Source: a virus
IMG/VR virus record: IMGVR_UViG_3300043493_000078
Length of the DNA: 61,367 nucleotides
Strand: one strand, 5' to 3'
The notes beneath the pieces are model-generated. The model saw only the letters and a program-made list of their open reading frames with translations. It did no database searches and was not told where the DNA came from. The translations under genes and the position numbers were made by a program. Positions 2,467-61,367 of this stretch are shown piece by piece. Within the stretch, counting starts at the first letter, position 1. Each line of letters starts with the position of its first letter.

Positions 2467-3110
2467 CGATCATCGCATGCGTGCGCACCGGTACCGCCTA
2501 TCCGTTCGAGTACGTCATCAAGCTGCGCAACATGGTGCAGCTCCACATGCACCGCCCCTTCGAGTTGGTCTGCATGACCGACCAGCCAGAGCGTTGCGAT
2601 GGAGTGACCTTTATCGACATTGCCGAAATCGCCCTTCCGGGATGGTGGGCGAAGCTTATTCTGTTCGCCCCCGAGTGGCGCGCCCTTCACAAGATCGTGT
2701 ACTTTGACTTGGATACCCTGATCATCAACGACATCACACCACTTGCGGATGTGCCGGGCGAGTTCGCGATTCTGGAAAGCCCGGTGCGGCAAGCGGGCAT
2801 CGCCAGCTATCCCTGCAAGTACAATTCGTCGGTGATGGTGATCGGTGCAGGCATGGCGAGTTTCGTCTGGACCCGCTTCGACCGGCAACGCGATCAGCTG
2901 ATGGCGCGCCATGAGCGATACGGCGACCAGAAGGTGATCGAGGAGCTGTATCCTTCGGCGTTGTTCCTGGCGCCATTGCTGCCAAAAAACTTCTTTATCA
3001 ATTACAGATACCTAACCATGCACAGGCCGCAGGCTTCGGTGGTGAATTTCGGTGGCTCACACAAGCCTGCGAACTGCCAGATCCCATGGGTGCAGCAGCA
3101 GTGGGCGTGA
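2460..3110 (+). CDS. Glycosyltransferase-like protein (GT-A fold, DxD)
   Basis: VTIIACVRTG...YFDLDTLIINDI (DxD). The ATG at 2460 is in frame with ORF 2406-3110. Confidence 0.5.
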   Translation: MVTIIACVRTGTAYPFEYVIKLRNMVQLHMHRPFELVCMTDQPERCDGVTFIDIAEIALPGWWAKLILFAPEWRALHKIVYFDLDTLIINDITPLADVPGEFAILESPVRQAGIASYPCKYNSSVMVIGAGMASFVWTRFDRQRDQLMARHERYGDQKVIEELYPSALFLAPLLPKNFFINYRYLTMHRPQASVVNFGGSHKPANCQIPWVQQQWA

Positions 3111-3885: not shown

Positions 3886-4251
3886 ATGCCACAAGGGCCG
3901 TTCGCGGGGACAGCATATCTAAAAGTCGATGGCGACATGTATCCACTAAAGGGGAACCTGACAGTATCGGCATCGGTGGTCGAGCGCACGGGCATTGCCG
4001 GACAAGACTACGTGCACGGCTACCAGGAACTACCGCGCGTGCCCTACATCGAGGGCGACGTGTCTACGCTGCCAGAGGTCAGCACCGAGTTTCTGGAATC
4101 GGTGATCGACGGCACTGTAACCGCAGAGCTGATCAACGGCACGACCTATGTCCTGCATAACGCTTGGACAAAAGGGCCGATTGACGTGAACACTCATGAC
4201 GGCCAGTTCCGCATTCGCTTCGAGGGGACCGGCTGCGAAGAAATGAAGTAA
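3886..4251 (+). CDS. Tail tube protein (Mu gpM / Phage_tube_2-like)
   Basis: 121 aa, SD taggag, directly upstream of the chaperone/frameshift/tape-measure set. The pattern G.AYLKVDG...GNLT...ERTGIAG is typical of this family. Confidence 0.7.
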   Translation: MPQGPFAGTAYLKVDGDMYPLKGNLTVSASVVERTGIAGQDYVHGYQELPRVPYIEGDVSTLPEVSTEFLESVIDGTVTAELINGTTYVLHNAWTKGPIDVNTHDGQFRIRFEGTGCEEMK

Positions 4252-21237: not shown

Positions 21238-22293
21238 GTGAAGATTTCTGGTCGAGCTAGCTGGTTTGGCGGCCCGCAGGATACCGGCGTTTCGCCGAGC
21301 GAAGGCCTCGCGTTTATTTTTGACGTGTCCGATGCACCGGACCTGTTCCTACCGGAGCAGCCGCCAGGCACGACCGGCCTCGCGCGCCGGCTCGATCCGG
21401 CGGAATACTACGTCGCCTGCCGATGGGACTACGATCAATACCCCAAGCCCTCGCTGCTCGAGCACCTGGCGCGGGTTACGGCCAAGAAGACCGGACGATC
21501 CTTTCTCGCCGCGCCCGCCGACTGGGGCCCCAACGAGAATACCGGCAGGGTCGCCGACCTCTCGCCCGGACTCATGGAGGCTCTCGACATCTCCACCGAC
21601 GACGAGGTCACAGTGGAATATCCGATCGATGAGGGACAAAGCGTCATGCCATATAAAAGCATCGTGATTTCGGCTGGCCACTCTGCGAAGTGTATCGGCG
21701 CAGTCGGTATCCTCGATGAGTACACCGAGAATGTCCACGTCGTGAACGCCGTCGCCGAGAACCTAGTGGCGCGCGGTGTCACGGTCAAGAAATTCATCGA
21801 TACGACATCGACGACATCCAATGAAAACCTCAATCGCATTGTCGACTATCACAACGCGCAGACGCGCGATCTCGATGTCTCGATTCACTTCAATGCCAAC
21901 GTCGACACCAGCAAACCGGTCGGCACCGAGTGCTTGTATGTGACGCAGCTCGATCTGTCGGACGACATCGCCGAGGCGATTGCGGCTGCCAGCGGGCTCC
22001 TCGATCGAGGACCGAAAGAACGCACCGATCTGTTCTTTCTCAACAACACCGAAATGCCGGCGATCCTGATCGAGGTCTGCTTCGTCGATAGCAGTGCAGA
22101 CGTCGATATCTATCACGACAAGTTCGACGACATTTGCGAGGCGATCGCCGACGTGCTCGGCGGCGAGAAGACCCAGCCAATGCCGCCGCGGCCTGACGAA
22201 CAGGTCGTCGAGATTGACATCAATGTGCCGTGCGGCGTGAAGCTCGCGCTGACGGTGAATGGCGAAGCCGTCATGGTCGACGACGAGGGCTGA
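21238..22293 (+). CDS. Endolysin: N-terminal DPBB/RlpA-like domain plus N-acetylmuramoyl-L-alanine amidase (Amidase_3)
   Basis: ASWFGGPQDTGVS at the N-terminus. Amidase_3 motifs ISAGHS..GAVG, DVSIHFNA, GTECLY, PAILIEVCFVD. GTG start behind AAGGAGG. Confidence 0.8.
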   Translation: MKISGRASWFGGPQDTGVSPSEGLAFIFDVSDAPDLFLPEQPPGTTGLARRLDPAEYYVACRWDYDQYPKPSLLEHLARVTAKKTGRSFLAAPADWGPNENTGRVADLSPGLMEALDISTDDEVTVEYPIDEGQSVMPYKSIVISAGHSAKCIGAVGILDEYTENVHVVNAVAENLVARGVTVKKFIDTTSTTSNENLNRIVDYHNAQTRDLDVSIHFNANVDTSKPVGTECLYVTQLDLSDDIAEAIAAASGLLDRGPKERTDLFFLNNTEMPAILIEVCFVDSSADVDIYHDKFDDICEAIADVLGGEKTQPMPPRPDEQVVEIDINVPCGVKLALTVNGEAVMVDDEG

Positions 22294-58266: not shown

Positions 58267-58946
58267 GCGCGTGGGTGGTGTATTGGTTGCACGACGAACG
58301 CTGCATCTGCTTGCAGAAGCACGGCTATGTTGGCATCAGCGGAGCGTTCATGACGCGACTTGTGGTTCATCAGCGCAACAAGCGCTTCCCGGCAAACTTC
58401 GAGTGGTCGATCATCTTCACGGGCACCAAGAATGAATGCTTGGCTCTAGAACGTACATTGAGACCTGGGTTTGGCATCGGTTGGAATAGAGCGCGCGGTG
58501 GTACGCCGGCAGTCGAATTCACAGCAGAGGTTCGCGAGAAGATGGGCGCGAGCCGTCGTGGTAAGCCACCGACTGATGCGCAACGTGCGCAATTTGTGAG
58601 GCAAAGCGAACGGACTAAGGGCAAGCCGACGCATCCGGGCTTGACCGTCCTGGGCAGACGCCGCCCTCCCGAAGAAATTGAACGCATCGCCGCAAACAAT
58701 CGCGGCAAGGTTCGATCTGCGGAATTTCGCGCCAAGCTGGGAGAATTAAAACGAGGCAATCGCAATCGCGTCGGTAAGCGGCACTCCGAGGAAACCAAAC
58801 GGCAAATTAGTTTAAAGAAACGCGGTGTGCCAGTTCACTCAGATGAGTTCAAAGCAACTCTAAGCGCGCGGCTGCGAGGCAACACCTACACCAAGGGTAA
58901 ACCTTGGTCCACCGCGCGCAGAGCCGCGCACCACCCCCGGCCTTAG
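58263..58946 (+). CDS. Free-standing GIY-YIG homing endonuclease with NUMOD3-like repeats
   Basis: VVYWLHD...GYVGIS...R..VH; repeated G(K/R)..S.E.K motifs (GKRHSEETKRQIS). Confidence 0.75.
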   Translation: MSAWVVYWLHDERCICLQKHGYVGISGAFMTRLVVHQRNKRFPANFEWSIIFTGTKNECLALERTLRPGFGIGWNRARGGTPAVEFTAEVREKMGASRRGKPPTDAQRAQFVRQSERTKGKPTHPGLTVLGRRRPPEEIERIAANNRGKVRSAEFRAKLGELKRGNRNRVGKRHSEETKRQISLKKRGVPVHSDEFKATLSARLRGNTYTKGKPWSTARRAAHHPRP

Positions 58947-58960
58947 AAGGAGACCACACT

Positions 58961-59016
58961 ATGCCTGTGAGCTTCAATTCCATCCCTCAGGGATGGCGGA
59001 TGCCACTATATTGGGT
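58961..59016 (+). CDS. Tail sheath protein, exon 1
   Basis: SD GAAGGAG. MPVSFNSIPQGWRMPLYW(V) is the sheath N-terminal signature. The ORF would otherwise stop at TAA 59021. Confidence 0.7.
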
Positions 59017-59270
59017 TTTTTAACCTAGGCCCCTTTGTCGAGTAATCGACATCGAACAAACCGGGTGAACTCAGGGGACATCCAGACCGGACAATCCTGA
59101 GCCAAGCGCCGAAAGGCGAAGGTGCAACGACCAGAGCGAAAGCTCGTAGGGCCAAGCGGCCCGAAGCGCCCGGCCCCTCGCAAGAGGGTGATGATATGGT
59201 CTCCTCTGCACAGGAATGTGCAGCAGCCGAAAGGCGGCAACGACGGTAGCGTGTCGTTGTGAAGGCAAGG
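59017..59270 (+). ncRNA. Candidate group I self-splicing intron (254 nt, no ORF)
   Basis: U59016-G59029 wobble in a 6-bp P1, terminal G59270, in-frame exon junction. There are five GNRA-capped hairpins: GTAA 59042, GAAA 59111, GAAA 59138, GCAA 59180, GAAA 59229. Confidence 0.6.
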
Positions 59271-60753
59271 CGAAGTCGATCCATCGATGGCCGGTTACCC
59301 GCGCTCGCGGCTGACCTCGCTGATCATCGGCACAATGCTCTCGACTGGACACGCCATCCCCGACGTGCCGATCCCGGTTCCGTCGCAGGCCGACGCGCGG
59401 CAGTTGTTCGGCTATGGCTCGATGCTCGATGCCATGGTGGAGAGCTTCACCAAGAACAATTTTTCGCAAGAGCTGTGGGTGGTGCCGATCGCACAGGCGG
59501 CCGCCGGACAGGCGGCGACCGGCACCCTTACCGTGACCGCACCAGCGACCTCATCGGGGACGCTGCCGATCTACATCGCTGGGCGGCGTGTGCAGACGTC
59601 GGTCATGGCGGGTGAGGATGTCGCCGTCGTCGGCGGCAATATCGCCAAAGCCATCAACGCTGATCCGTCAATGCCGGTCATCGCGACGACAGCGAGCACT
59701 GACGCGCCGCTGGTAACGCTGACCTGCAAATGGAAGGGCGTCGAAGGCAATGATATCGACGTGCGGCTGGCTTATGGCGGTGCACTGGCGGCCGAGATGG
59801 TCCCAGTGGGCCTCGCCATTACGCTGCCAGCCAACAACAAGCTGTCTGGCGGTTCTGGTTCGCCAGTCATCACCACCGCAATCGACAACCTGGGTGACGA
59901 AATCTACGAGTACGTCGCGACCGGCTTCAACGACAGCAACACGCTAAACGCATTGGAATACGAGTACGGCTTCAGTGATAGCGGGCGCTGGGGCTGGCTG
60001 CGGCAGCTCTATGGCCATGTGTTCGGGGCCAAGCGGGGCGATTACCCGACGTTGCTGGCCTATGGCCCCAGCAACAACAGCGGGGTTCTCTCGATCATGG
60101 GAGTCGAGCAGAATTCCCCGACACCGCCATGGAGTTGGGCTGCAGCCTATGCAGCCAAGGCGGCGCGGGCGCTGCTCAATGACCCGGCGCGCCCGCTGCA
60201 GACGCTGGCTCTGGAGGGGTGCCTGCCACCGCCCAAGCATCAGCGTTTCGACAAGGCCCAGTGCAATGCGCTCTCGGGCGTCGGCATCGCTACTCAGGGC
60301 GTCAATGACGGCGGCACCCCGGCGATCCTGCGCGAGAGCACGACCTACCAGAAGAATCTCTATGGTCAGGGCGACGATGCTTATGAAGTGATCCCGACGC
60401 TGGCCACGCTGTCGGCCCTGTTCCGATCGCAGCGGCAGGCCATCACCAGCAAGTTCCCGCGCCACAAGCTGGCCGATGACGGCACTCGTTTCGGCGCCGG
60501 TCAGGCTATCGTGACACCGAAGATCATCAAGGCCGAGCTGATCGCACAATATGTCAACGACCAGTTCCTGGGCCGCGTAGAGAATATCAAGGCATTCAAG
60601 TCCAACTTGATTGTTGAGAGGAACGTGACCGACGTGAACCGCGTCGATGTGCTCTACCCGCCTGACCTGATCAATCAGCTTCGCATATTTGCAGTGCTCG
60701 CCCAATTTCGTTTGCAATATGACAGAGGTGGCGTAACTGGAGTGATCGTCTAA
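59271..60753 (+). CDS. Tail sheath protein, exon 2 (Mu gpL-like)
   Basis: Begins (V)EVDPSMAGYPRSRLTSLIIG..., continuing the sheath N-terminal signature. The ORF track starts this ORF at ATG 59287. Confidence 0.8.
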
Positions 60754-60799: not shown

Positions 60800-61367
60800 A
60801 TGGATGTCTACGGCAAGATCAGCAAGCCGTTCTGGGACGACAAGCCGGTCGCGGTCGTGGCGGGTGGCCCGTCGCTGATCGGCTTCGATTTCGAGCGGCT
60901 GCGCGGATGCCATTTGCTGGCAGTAAAAGGGGCTATGTTCGACATCCCGTGGGCTGATGCAGGCTTCGGCCTCGACATGCCGCGCTACGAGGAATGGCGC
61001 GACAAGCTCACCAGGGTGCAAAGCCGGGTCTATTGGGCAGTGCCAGAGGACCAGCTTGAAAAGACCGGCCCGCCGCCATCGAAGAACGTAACCTTCCTGC
61101 GCAGGCTCGTGGGCGAGGCGCTATCAACCGATCCTGGTGAAATCTATGGCGGCGGCACCAGCGGGTTCGGGGCATTGCAGATTTGCTTGCACAAGCGAGC
61201 CAAGCGCATCGTCCTGTTCGGTTACGATTATGATGGGGCGTATGACGGCGGGTCTTTCAGGCACAATGGCCGGCACTATGAAAAACGGCGCGCGCAGAAT
61301 TTCGAGAACTGGGTGGCGTGGGCCACACATTTCGCGGTCTATGTGCCGTATCTCAACAAGAACGGAA
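60800..61367 (+). CDS. DUF115/MptE-like (Maf-type) putative glycosyltransferase, 5' part (continues at base 1)
   Basis: VAVVAGGPSL ... GGGTSGFGALQICLHKRAKRIVLFGYDY follows the DUF115 pattern. Confidence 0.6.
   Translation, partial: MDVYGKISKPFWDDKPVAVVAGGPSLIGFDFERLRGCHLLAVKGAMFDIPWADAGFGLDMPRYEEWRDKLTRVQSRVYWAVPEDQLEKTGPPPSKNVTFLRRLVGEALSTDPGEIYGGGTSGFGALQICLHKRAKRIVLFGYDYDGAYDGGSFRHNGRHYEKRRAQNFENWVAWATHFAVYVPYLNKNG
61241..61367. repeat. Terminal overlap, right copy (identical to 1-127)
   Basis: Read directly. Confidence 0.95.

Follow-up and report, generated by a model that had tools for sequence, protein, structure and literature searches.

The tail sheath gene of this phage is very probably interrupted at codon 19 by a 254-nt group I intron with an IA-like architecture, and splicing would restore a sheath protein of 512 aa (Table 1). 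The intron is a known kind of selfish element, with relatives at several positions in sheath, tube, and capsid genes. The window, i.e., the whole 61,367-nt stretch of DNA that was analyzed, looks like a complete phage genome with a 127-nt terminal repeat, the genome being that of a circular or terminally redundant phage of about 61.2 kb in which no tRNA genes were present.

Table 1. Features of the putative intron, the interrupted sheath gene, and the upstream gene (window coordinates). The helices are those of the predicted intron structure.
Feature	Position	Strand	Evidence
Putative homing-endonuclease gene, free-standing, 227 aa	58263-58946	+	NUMOD3, phrog_314, homologs, AlphaFold2
Shine-Dalgarno sequence AAGGAG, 8 nt ahead of the sheath ATG	58947-58952	+	direct sequence reading
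Sheath exon 1, 56 nt, MPVSFNSIPQGWRMPLYW + GU	58961-59016	+	N-terminus patterned like about 100 uninterrupted homologs
P1, GGGU|UU (59013-59018) with guide AGGCCC (59027-59032)	59013-59032	+	guide-exon covariation, 13 junctions
Predicted group I intron, 254 nt, without endonuclease ORF, last base G59270	59017-59270	+	RF00028, covariation, fold z-score
P2 hairpin, GUAA loop	59037-59050	+	compensatory in 5/5 pairs
P3 5' strand, partner 59167-59173	59061-59067	+	4/6 pairs compensatory and 97.5% paired cells; Rfam alignment
P4-P5-P6-P6a domain	59070-59122	+	covariation; MFE fold
P4; P5	59070-76/59095-101; 59081-83/59089-91	+	covariation
P6; P6a, GAAA loop	59102-03/59121-22; 59107-10/59115-18	+	covariation
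P7 5' strand GACCA, partner UGGUC 59197-59201, pseudoknot with P3	59129-59133	+	100% of cells paired, 2/5 compensatory
P7.1 (59134-37/59142-45), GAAA loop	59134-59145	+	compensatory in 4/4 pairs
P7.2 (59149-53/59158-62)	59149-59162	+	compensatory in 3/5 pairs
P3 3' strand	59167-59173	+	covariation
P8 hairpin, GCAA loop	59175-59188	+	covariation; Rfam alignment
J8/7 (UGAUGAUA) and P7 3' strand (59197-59201)	59189-59201	+	nearly invariant in 46 relatives
P9, GGAA loop	59206-12/59217-23	+	inner 5/5 pairs compensatory; of the outer pairs, one compensatory and one never varying
P9.1, GAAA loop	59226-28/59233-35	+	
P9.2, CAACGAC/GTCGTTG	59238-44/59253-59	+	compensatory in 7/7 pairs
Sheath exon 2, 1483 nt including the stop codon	59271-60753	+	profile match of the spliced 512-aa product

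Without splicing, the frame that opens at ATG 58961 ends at a TAA codon (59021-59023). The original prediction had described this short ORF as starting behind a strong Shine-Dalgarno sequence, which is present, and as 19 codons long before the TAA; the stop is borne out, but the ORF has 20 codons (..YWVF*). As also claimed, the long sheath frame was already open ahead of exon 2, from position 59263. Joining 58961-59016 to 59271-60753 gave 1539 nt (56 + 1483 nt), i.e., the predicted 513 in-frame codons or 512 aa plus stop, with a product reading ..PLYWVEVDPSMAG.. and, at the U59016/C59271 join, ..MPLYWV|EVDPSMAG... The same N-terminus (MPLYWVEVDPSMAG) was found in about 100 uninterrupted homologs with at most 91% identity, for example in L222 (91% identical), L221 (90%), and Paraburkholderia phage IPK. 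The spliced 512-aa product aligned in one stretch, end to end, with the phrog_165 profile (residues 1-500 against 1-493 of 493) and also matched Pfam Phage_sheath_1 and Phage_sheath_1C.

Only the U59016|C59271 junction combined a U at position −1, a terminal intron G, and a homolog-like N-terminus. The junctions U59019|C59271 and U59018|G59270 would yield YWVFEVD and YWVCEVD, respectively, each with an extra residue absent from the homologs, and the junction 59017|59272 would give the correct protein, but the intron would end on C. G59270 had been proposed as the last intron base, and the introns of all eight sheath-gene relatives examined (8/8) also end in G.

An Infernal scan with the Rfam group I models, which the original prediction had put forward as a check, returned a match to RF00028 at 59008-59223 that spanned the full model (positions 1-253 of 253) and scored 72.6 bits against a gathering threshold of 50 (E = 1.7e-16). 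The intron of a sheath-gene relative, L007, was also above this threshold (58.9 bits). The P5 and P1 registers of the Rfam alignment were forced, with a 1-nt P5 loop, and were re-derived comparatively. The hand-derived P2-P9.2 structure, including the P7 pseudoknot, was analyzed on 46 distinct relatives, gathered by sequence alone (nhmmer) and aligned with MAFFT: 93.2% of cells were paired and compensatory double changes were observed in 47 of the 64 pairs. None of 500 shuffles reached these values, and slid controls were 33-41% paired. The MFE fold reproduced P2-P9.2, with a z-score of −4.7 relative to shuffled sequences. In group I introns, P7 harbors the guanosine pocket, and its compensatory variants here included GACUA/UAGUC and GAUCA/UGAUC.

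[quoted passage not shown] The ORFs found in the intron are all short and overlap the folded core. A criterion for subgroup IA is a pair of extra helices, P7.1 and P7.2, that follow the 5' strand of P7 and precede the 3' strand of P3 (PMC3984707); having both helices, the predicted structure is IA-like, and we infer that it belongs to subgroup IA2. Taken together, the RF00028 score, the covariation of the core, and the restored frame support the proposal that the insert is a group I intron, the fold, the boundaries, and the frame being established at the level of sequence comparison.

These data also bear on two other readings of the interruption. The first, an assembly artefact, a frameshift, or a translational bypass site, would find some ground in the metagenome assembly from which the window originates, but it is effectively refuted and hardly conceivable in view of the full-length group I model match and of homologous in-frame inserts with exact junctions in many independent assemblies from different samples. 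According to the second, the insert would be a decayed intron that no longer splices, leaving a sheath pseudogene in a defective phage, or the sheath would be made from Met 59287 and lack the MPVSFNSIPQGWR..YWVEVDPSMAGYPR N-terminal peptide. Gene callers do start several homologs at the equivalent Met (P0020, P0021), and in the window the called product has 488 aa from Met 59287. This second reading is nonetheless very improbable: no damage is seen in any core helix, in J8/7, in the U.G pair, or at the terminal G, compensatory changes among relatives maintain these elements, Met 59287 lacks a Shine-Dalgarno sequence, a start there would remove the conserved N-terminal 24 residues, which are nearly invariant across the family, and the genome looks complete, with its terminal repeat. 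Moreover, the start of P0021 was mis-called.

Since the unspliced product stops at 20 residues, and Met 59287 has no ribosome binding site and would give a protein deprived of these 24 residues, splicing of the putative intron would be required for tails. The same shortened call was found for intron-bearing relatives in public catalogs, and recognizing the intron would thus restore in annotations a complete essential tail protein that gene callers otherwise shorten. A 488-aa homolog starting with MAGYPRSRL was not a reliable sign of an intron: it was a true sign for P0020 (L007) and a false one for P0021 (L004), which is an intron-free gene. The sheath gene of L127 also shows a gap, of about 255 nt, but this is due to a domain inserted in frame and not to an intron.

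The 5' splice site is marked by the wobble pair U59016.G59029 in a 6-bp P1. Comparison bears out this pairing, already part of the original prediction: at 13 junctions defined by homology in relatives, among which four exon tetramers occur (GGGU, GGAU, CGCU, and GGUU), the guide has changed so that four pairs with the exon, the last of them U.G, are preserved. An alternative P1 in the MFE fold (UUGGGUU/AACCUAG), in which U59016 is paired to A, was not conserved among relatives, and a search for P10, in which the first bases of exon 2 would pair with the P1 loop, gave nothing convincing.

By analogy with the established behavior of group I introns, the transcript would fold into a P1-P9.2 ribozyme, and an exogenous guanosine bound in P7 would attack the bond 3' of U59016, held in P1 by its wobble with G59029. 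The released exon 1 would then attack after the terminal G59270, and ligation of GU to C would form a Val codon and lead to the 512-aa sheath protein, whereas translation would end at 20 residues without splicing. The predicted sequence at the exon 1 junction of the window on exon ligation is ..UAUUGGGU|CGAAGUC...

Homologous introns were located at four sites of the sheath gene within 22 nt (after nt 41, 47, 56, and 63), in tail tube genes (at least three positions), and in major head genes. The tetramer GGGU and a matching guide were common to sheath site A and tube sites 1 and 3, and GGAU and its matching guide were common to sheath site B and tube site 2. Identity with the window intron was 90% for one sheath intron at site B and for one tube-gene intron, whereas another intron at site A reached only 83%; the core similarity of these introns is therefore decoupled from their insertion site. 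Among the related metagenomic phages, the same intron occurs at several neighboring sites and in three structural genes, and it may be ORF-less, contain its own LAGLIDADG-like ORF (L055), or lie next to GIY-YIG-like or HNH-like ORFs (the latter in L073). Such phages would form a natural series for intron-endonuclease pairing and guide retuning.

Upstream of exon 1, the original prediction had placed a free-standing GIY-YIG gene ending 15 nt before it. The distance between the stop codon of this gene (58944-58946) and the sheath ATG is 14 nt, its start overlaps the stop of the preceding gene (ATGA), and no promoter- or terminator-like sites were found between the endonuclease and sheath genes. 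The gene is free-standing and homing-endonuclease-like as proposed, with a match to the phrog_314 homing endonuclease, but Pfam gave NUMOD3 only (PF07460, 42.2 bits versus 20.4, in three stretches), and the GIY-YIG assignment comes from homologs and from the predicted fold of a divergent N-terminal domain (residues 1-80) that precedes the NUMOD3 repeats. The window protein fell below the cut-off of the Pfam GIY-YIG family (PF01541), with no match even at E ≤ 10. Seventeen of 34 homologs showed weak matches to this family (best E = 3.4e-4), and the homologs in L032 and L099 scored 23.6 and 20.2 bits, respectively, the former passing the cut-off of 22.6 bits. Since the window protein, which is below the cut-off, is linked to L032 by tblastn (E = 1e-22), its membership in the GIY-YIG family would follow by transitive homology.

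In the AlphaFold2 model, the N-terminal domain adopts a beta-beta-alpha-beta-alpha arrangement (E4-10, E22-26, H29-38, E47-54, and H56-66) with a pLDDT of about 90. Five residues (Y7, Y22, G24, E63, and N75) never vary and a sixth, R32, is kept in at least 90% of the sequences, all in the order expected for GIY-YIG. A Foldseek search with this domain returned GIY-YIG nucleases as four of the five top matches (two Slx1, EF2693, and HIGLE), at non-significant values (E = 1.4-2.8, TM-score 0.37-0.47), and the full-length model retrieved nothing. Searches of PDB sequences with phmmer and a profile found nothing relevant, nor did the N-terminal domain alone retrieve anything from PHROGs. The homologs and the model point, if weakly, to a divergent GIY-YIG-like endonuclease.

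The window thus has the layout of collaborative or trans homing, namely an ORF-less intron and a free-standing endonuclease gene adjoining the interrupted gene. Collaborative homing has been documented (PMC3984707; PMC2790892), and an ORF-less intron with a nearby free-standing endonuclease has been proposed as a precursor of mobile introns, with only two phage systems described in a 2014 review (PMC3984707). From their position and co-occurrence, we tentatively suggest that the endonuclease mobilizes the intron in this manner. In a mixed infection, the enzyme would cleave the DNA of relatives that lack it, within or close to the conserved sheath 5' end, and recombinational repair would copy the endonuclease gene together with the intron. 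The intron may also shield its own genome by splitting the target site. The sheath 5' end as the target is in doubt, however, because the sheath 5' sequence of L218, which has the endonuclease and no intron, is almost identical to that of the endonuclease-free L222.

It is quite possible instead that the intron is real and the neighboring endonuclease unrelated to it. The endonuclease would then spread alone by intron-less homing into the intergenic slot ahead of the sheath gene, the ORF-less intron would be immobile, inherited vertically, or moved by reverse splicing into sites matching its 4-6 nt guide, and their adjacency would be a coincidence between two selfish elements favoring conserved late genes. 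Consistent with this, homologs of the endonuclease adjoin uninterrupted sheath genes in at least nine loci; they are 51-55% identical and directly upstream in L216, L218, and L220, and further such loci are L232, L255, L278, and L297. No endonuclease gene of this family was found at the intron-bearing loci L028 and L052, and the introns of L055 and L073 have the other ORFs mentioned above. The independence of core similarity from insertion site fits this reading as well, and the sharing of guides by shared tetramers is what guide-directed reverse splicing would give.

On the other hand, the family was found beside four of eight distinct intron-bearing sheath loci versus six of 93 intron-free ones (Fisher p = 0.003, the two samples having been gathered by different routes), and the endonuclease gene and the intron lie only about 70 nt apart in the window, so that gene conversion would almost certainly carry both. 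Both elements are also jointly absent from the nearest relatives, L221 and L222, in which a spacer of about 95 nt replaces the endonuclease gene. Less in keeping with a link, the intron found with the closest endonuclease homolog (L215, 68% identity) is inserted elsewhere, 15 nt farther upstream. An apparent confinement of the family to intron-bearing loci was an artefact of locus collection, corrected by endonuclease-centered and sheath-centered samples. Across the loci compared, the association of endonuclease and intron is not obligatory in either direction.

A broader and rather doubtful hypothesis is that free-standing GIY-YIG-like endonucleases and one fast-moving intron lineage share a battleground, formed by roughly the first 65 nt of the sheath gene, which are conserved, and by the tube-gene 5' end. 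Any insertion disrupting the long endonuclease target would confer immunity and be selected for it, guide-directed reverse splicing would give access to new sites, and introns would be recruited repeatedly as target-site breakers, beyond being passengers. The basis of this hypothesis is that one intron, with 80-90% identity between its copies, occupies at least four positions in the sheath gene and at least three in the tube gene, with the guide retuned each time.

Two documented systems resemble the collaborative or trans homing suggested here. In cyanophage S-PM2, an ORF-less psbA group I intron is accompanied by the free-standing endonuclease F-CphI (Zeng, Bonocora and Shub 2009; summarized in PMC3984707 and PMC6083498). 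The proposed logic is similar, the endonuclease targeting intron-less alleles and the intron interrupting its site, but F-CphI is of the Endo VII type rather than NUMOD3/GIY-YIG-like, the host gene in the window is a virion structural gene, the endonuclease family described here often adjoins intron-free alleles, and its cleavage target is proposed only. The T4 nrdB intron is mobilized in trans by the free-standing MobE (PMC2790892). There, as we propose here, an intron without a working endonuclease is carried by gene conversion initiated by a neighbor, although MobE is an HNH enzyme and a defunct I-TevIII ORF persists in the T4 intron, whereas the window intron is ORF-less.

The T4 td intron belongs to subgroup IA2, and its endonuclease, I-TevI, is composed of a GIY-YIG catalytic domain, a linker, and a DNA-binding domain. 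The window resembles this system in the P7.1/P7.2-type helices of the intron and in the combination of an N-terminal GIY-YIG-like domain with NUMOD3-type repeats. Unlike the I-TevI gene, which lies inside the intron, the endonuclease gene of the window is outside, and its putative catalytic domain is far more divergent, below the Pfam threshold and with a Tyr-motif spacing of 15 instead of 11 residues.

Group I introns in capsid and tail genes were described in Cluster J mycobacteriophages, where splicing was experimentally verified (PMC3706429). As in the present case, virion structural genes are interrupted, one lineage occurs in two structural genes with and without a LAGLIDADG ORF, and free-standing endonucleases are common. 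The Cluster J phages have other hosts, multiple neighboring sites were not reported for them, and splicing was verified there and is predicted here. Group I introns are known from few virion structural genes, to which the tail sheath gene would be added; a literature search, whose incomplete coverage makes it weak evidence, found no earlier report of a group I intron in a sheath gene.

Group I introns are also found in DNA-polymerase genes of T7-like phages, such as that of Pf-WMP3, which is of subgroup IA2 (PMC3428280). In the T7-like Dickeya phage BF25/12, the DNA pol I gene is split by an intron with an HNH ORF. These T7-like DNA-polymerase introns differ from the sheath intron in interrupting a gene for replication and in containing an HNH endonuclease ORF of their own. 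The BF25/12 and window introns nevertheless have two stretches of the catalytic core in common, one of 42 nt (97.6% identity) and one of 47 nt (87%), which places them by sequence in the same lineage.

The short ORF at 58961-59023 (+), which by direct reading of the sequence encodes MPVSFNSIPQGWRMPLYWVF and stops at a TAA, is preceded by a strong Shine-Dalgarno sequence, as the original prediction had it, and counts 20 codons rather than 19. From position 59263 onward the long sheath frame is open, with its first ATG at 59287. Joining 58961-59016 to 59271-60753 gave 1539 nt encoding a 512-aa protein (..RMPLYWV|EVDPSMAGYPRSRL..), and the predicted split of the sheath gene, its exon coordinates and the restored frame were thus correct. 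Residues 1-500 of the spliced protein matched phrog_165 (tail sheath) in a single stretch (positions 1-493 of 493), and Pfam sheath domains were also matched. A search of 5.8 billion proteins retrieved thousands of sheath homologues; about 100 of the best 120 were uninterrupted, with the N-terminus MP[VI]SF..IP..W[RK].PL[YF]W[VI]E[VT]D.S.AG and no more than 91% identity overall, and the alignment was unbroken from residue 1 in the cultured, Mu-like/SfV-like phages ST64B, SfI, and Paraburkholderia phage IPK. Alternative in-frame junctions were rejected, as each would add a Phe or Cys absent from all homologues, and only U59016|C59271 combines a U at −1 with a G as last intron base. Tail assembly should depend on splicing, given that no ribosome-binding site precedes Met 59287 and that residues 1-24 hardly vary.

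In public gene calls, the sheath start was set at an internal Met (MAGYPRSRL..) in several intron-free genes, such as that of the related phage locus L004 (3929-4001; protein P0021) and other 484-502-aa entries; short length alone is therefore an unreliable sign of an intron. An in-frame insertion of ~80-180 aa follows about residue 43 in some sheath homologues, among them the 607-609-aa proteins P0072 and P0078. The insertion in locus L127 (about 2816-3072) was considered as an intron and rejected, because direct reading showed a domain insertion; those in L212/L213/L233, L296, and L301 are probably in-frame, judging from the gap between tblastn segments and no intron match.

An Infernal scan with the Rfam group I models, which the original prediction had suggested as a check, gave RF00028 (Intron_gpI), aligned with 59008-59223 over the whole model length (72.6 bits, E 1.7e-16; gathering score 50), and no other Rfam family was matched in the window. 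The secondary structure, for which the Rfam alignment was combined with a pairwise comparison to the related locus L007, comprises P1, P2, P3, P4, P5, P6/P6a, P7 (pseudoknot), P7.1, P7.2, P8, P9, P9.1, and P9.2, and six GNRA tetraloops are present instead of the five announced. With both P7.1 and P7.2, this is IA-like subgroup architecture by the criterion of PMC3984707.

With a conserved intron 18-mer as bait, at least 119 stretches from viral and 75 from genomic sequences were recovered. By blastn, a relative of the intron was detectable in 146 of the 202 collected loci, and an nhmmer search on sequence alone gave 190 matches (73 nearly full length). Covariation was analyzed in 46 distinct full-length relatives, aligned with MAFFT without structural guidance. 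Standard pairs filled 93.2% of the cells, versus 70.5% after shuffling and 33-41% with partners slid by 1-3 columns; both sides had changed in 47 of 64 pairs, and none of 500 shuffles reached any measure. Variation was rich in every helix but the retrieval-biased P7.2, with compensatory pairs in P2 (5/5), P7.1 (4/4), the inner five of P9 (5/5), and P9.2 (7/7). P7 was 100% paired, with the variants GACCA/UGGUC, GACUA/UAGUC, and GAUCA/UGAUC. An independent minimum-free-energy fold recovered P2-P9.2 (z = −4.7). The group I interpretation is supported, and sequence evidence shows the predicted ribozyme fold, the two splice sites and the reading frame that their joining restores; it is very likely that 59017-59270 functions as a group I intron with these boundaries. 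Splicing would proceed by guanosine-initiated two-step transesterification, following established group I intron chemistry.

Protein homology fixes 13 junctions, and at all of them the guide sequence, the intron strand of P1, pairs with the four terminal exon bases and ends in a U.G wobble; all four Watson-Crick combinations (g-C, a-U, c-G, u-A) occur at exon position −2. The terminal intron base was G in every sheath-gene relative examined. The P1 with U.G wobble, the terminal G and both boundaries proposed for the window intron therefore have strong comparative support as predicted features. No convincing P10 pairing was found.

Homologous introns, 75-90% identical in their core, occupy four sites in a 22-nt stretch of the sheath gene, and the same lineage splits the tail tube gene (phrog_185; MAQRIAG|IAFLKVDG..) at three positions and a major head protein gene in L087 (6572-6822), whose spliced product matches phrog_267 in one stretch. 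At site A, L055 (3090-3849) has a longer intron (~700 nt) containing an ORF of 147 aa, in which a LAGIVDG motif is present and Pfam LAGLIDADG_3 is weakly matched (18 bits, below cut-off); this version corresponds, as a "mobile intron", to the ORF-less one of the window. An HNH-like ORF (HEVDH..N..N), for which no Pfam match was found, lies upstream of the tube intron in L073. The repeated installation of one lineage at neighbouring sites with re-tuned guides is the less ordinary aspect, and is observed in the related loci rather than in the window itself.

Features of the window and of related phage loci (L-numbers), with insertion sites of the intron lineage and placement of the endonuclease family
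Feature	Position	Strand	Exon end	Loci or remarks
Shine-Dalgarno AAGGAG	58947-58952	+		window; strong, precedes short ORF
Endonuclease ORF, 227 aa	58263-58946	+		window; start overlaps preceding gene's stop (ATGA), ends 14 nt before exon 1
Sheath site B	after nt 41		CGGAU	L007/L008/L053, L074, L215
Sheath site C	after nt 47		CCGCU	L028, L052/L120
Sheath site A	after nt 56		GGGU	window, L034/L193, L055
Sheath site D	after nt 63		GAGGUU	L080
Tube position 1	after G7			L099 9808-10722, L032 1979-2920, L074 4058-4311
Tube position 2	after D14			L073 1805-2065
Tube position 3	after G44			L127 910-1181
Endonuclease with site-A intron	directly upstream of sheath gene			window
Endonuclease with site-B intron	upstream of sheath gene			L007
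Endonuclease with site-D intron	upstream, divergent orientation			L080
Endonuclease with site-A sheath intron	between sheath and tube genes			L034
Endonuclease with tube intron	between sheath and tube genes, directly upstream of tube intron			L099, L032

A free-standing GIY-YIG gene had been predicted 15 nt upstream of exon 1; the gap from its stop codon is 14 nt, and the ORF is of the NUMOD3 homing-endonuclease type. Pfam returned NUMOD3 only (42.2 bits), a part labelled "homing endonuclease" in PHROGs. A database search found just 34 relatives, the window protein included, in which Y7-W-L, G21-Y-x-G24, E63, R67-P, G73-W-N75, and G79-G80 are invariant and R32 and H36 nearly so; these residues follow the GIY-YIG motif order of I-TevI. 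Pfam GIY-YIG was weakly matched by 17 of the 34 (best E 3.4e-4), the L032 homologue clearing the curated cut-off (23.6 versus 22.6 bits) and that of L099 nearly reaching it (20.2 bits). AlphaFold2, applied both to the full-length protein and to its N-terminal domain alone, predicted a confident beta-beta-alpha-beta-alpha domain, for which four of the five top Foldseek matches were GIY-YIG nucleases (two Slx1 entries, EF2693, and HIGLE), with non-significant E-values; sequence and profile searches against the PDB found nothing. From NUMOD3, the relatives' weak matches, the motif order and the predicted fold, we call the product a divergent GIY-YIG-like, NUMOD3-containing free-standing homing endonuclease, its GIY-YIG membership being only partly demonstrated.

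Both elements are missing from the two loci whose sheath is most similar, L222 (91% identical) and L221 (90%): a ~95-nt spacer takes the place of the endonuclease gene, and the sheath gene is continuous. The closest endonuclease homologue (L215, 68% identity) comes with a site-B intron, not a site-A one. In L074, truncated endonuclease remnants (2100-2200, VVYWLYDETC..stop; 3920-4050, KKTCVYWLYG stop) lie upstream of the sheath and tube introns, which suggests endonuclease decay after the introns became fixed. Homologues (51-55% identity) also lie directly upstream of unbroken sheath genes in L216/217, L218/219, and L220, and the family adjoins such genes in L232, L255, L278, and L297 (upstream) and in L250 and L264 (downstream), on either strand. 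This family seems to land preferentially in the slots on either side of the sheath gene. L216 has a second NUMOD3 protein gene 3' of its sheath gene.

Of 80 metagenomic loci sampled by their sheath gene, seven had the endonuclease family and only one the intron. Like the L215 pairing and the homologues next to unbroken sheath genes, this argues that neither element strictly depends on the other. Among distinct loci whose retrieval did not involve the endonuclease, a member of its family lay beside 4/8 intron-bearing versus 6/93 intron-free sheath genes (Fisher p = 0.003; 0.015 without the window), a figure that is indicative only, since the two samples were gathered by different routes. Alternatively, intron and endonuclease may be independent, new sites being reached by guide-directed reverse splicing; this is supported by intron similarity that does not follow insertion site and by the same guide sequence at sites having the same exon tetramer.

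We tentatively propose, short of an even chance, that the neighbouring endonuclease mobilises the window intron or is shielded by it. I-TevI-type GIY-YIG enzymes have long bipartite targets, so that insertion at any of sites A-D could break one target, an attractive potential explanation for the site cluster. The window intron contains no endonuclease ORF and lies ~70 nt from the free-standing gene; if this enzyme started double-strand-break repair in a co-infecting relative, both should thus be co-converted. Such transfer would amount to trans homing, as for T4 free-standing MobE and the nrdB intron (PMC2790892), or to collaborative homing if the target overlaps the insertion site, as outlined for the S-PM2 psbA intron and F-CphI in PMC3984707 and PMC6083498. 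No promoter- or terminator-like site was found between the endonuclease and sheath genes.

An ORF-less intron next to a free-standing endonuclease gene has precedents, though rare ones (PMC3984707). Precedents also exist for group I introns in phage structural genes, a kind into which the window intron fits: Cluster J mycobacteriophages have them in capsid and tail genes, one lineage, sometimes carrying a LAGLIDADG ORF and sometimes not, being shared by two genes (PMC3706429), and a capsid gene intron of Tuc2009 is cited in the same paper. A literature search of incomplete coverage found no earlier report of a tail sheath gene intron. The lineage also occurs in cultured phages, such as Dickeya phage BF25/12 (KT240186.1), whose annotated "DNA polymerase I" consists of two CDSs around an HNH endonuclease gene and whose core blocks are 97.6% (42 nt, 21467-21508) and 87% (47 nt, about 22061-22107) identical to the window intron. 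This intron gave no Rfam match at the gathering threshold, probably because of its 546-nt ORF insertion.

An exact 127-nt direct repeat (1-127 and 61241-61367) points to a circular or terminally redundant assembly, in which the phage genome is complete at ~61,240 bp. Gene order continues across the window ends, with the tail tube gene N-terminus at 3904-4017, uninterrupted. The gene 3' of the sheath gene (60800-61366) is MptE-like (weak Pfam match), not the tube gene, and resembles the phrog_4603 "alpha-2,3-sialyltransferase" family (PHROGs E 4.5e-13). Several function-unassigned genes lie between the sheath gene and the tube gene in relatives.
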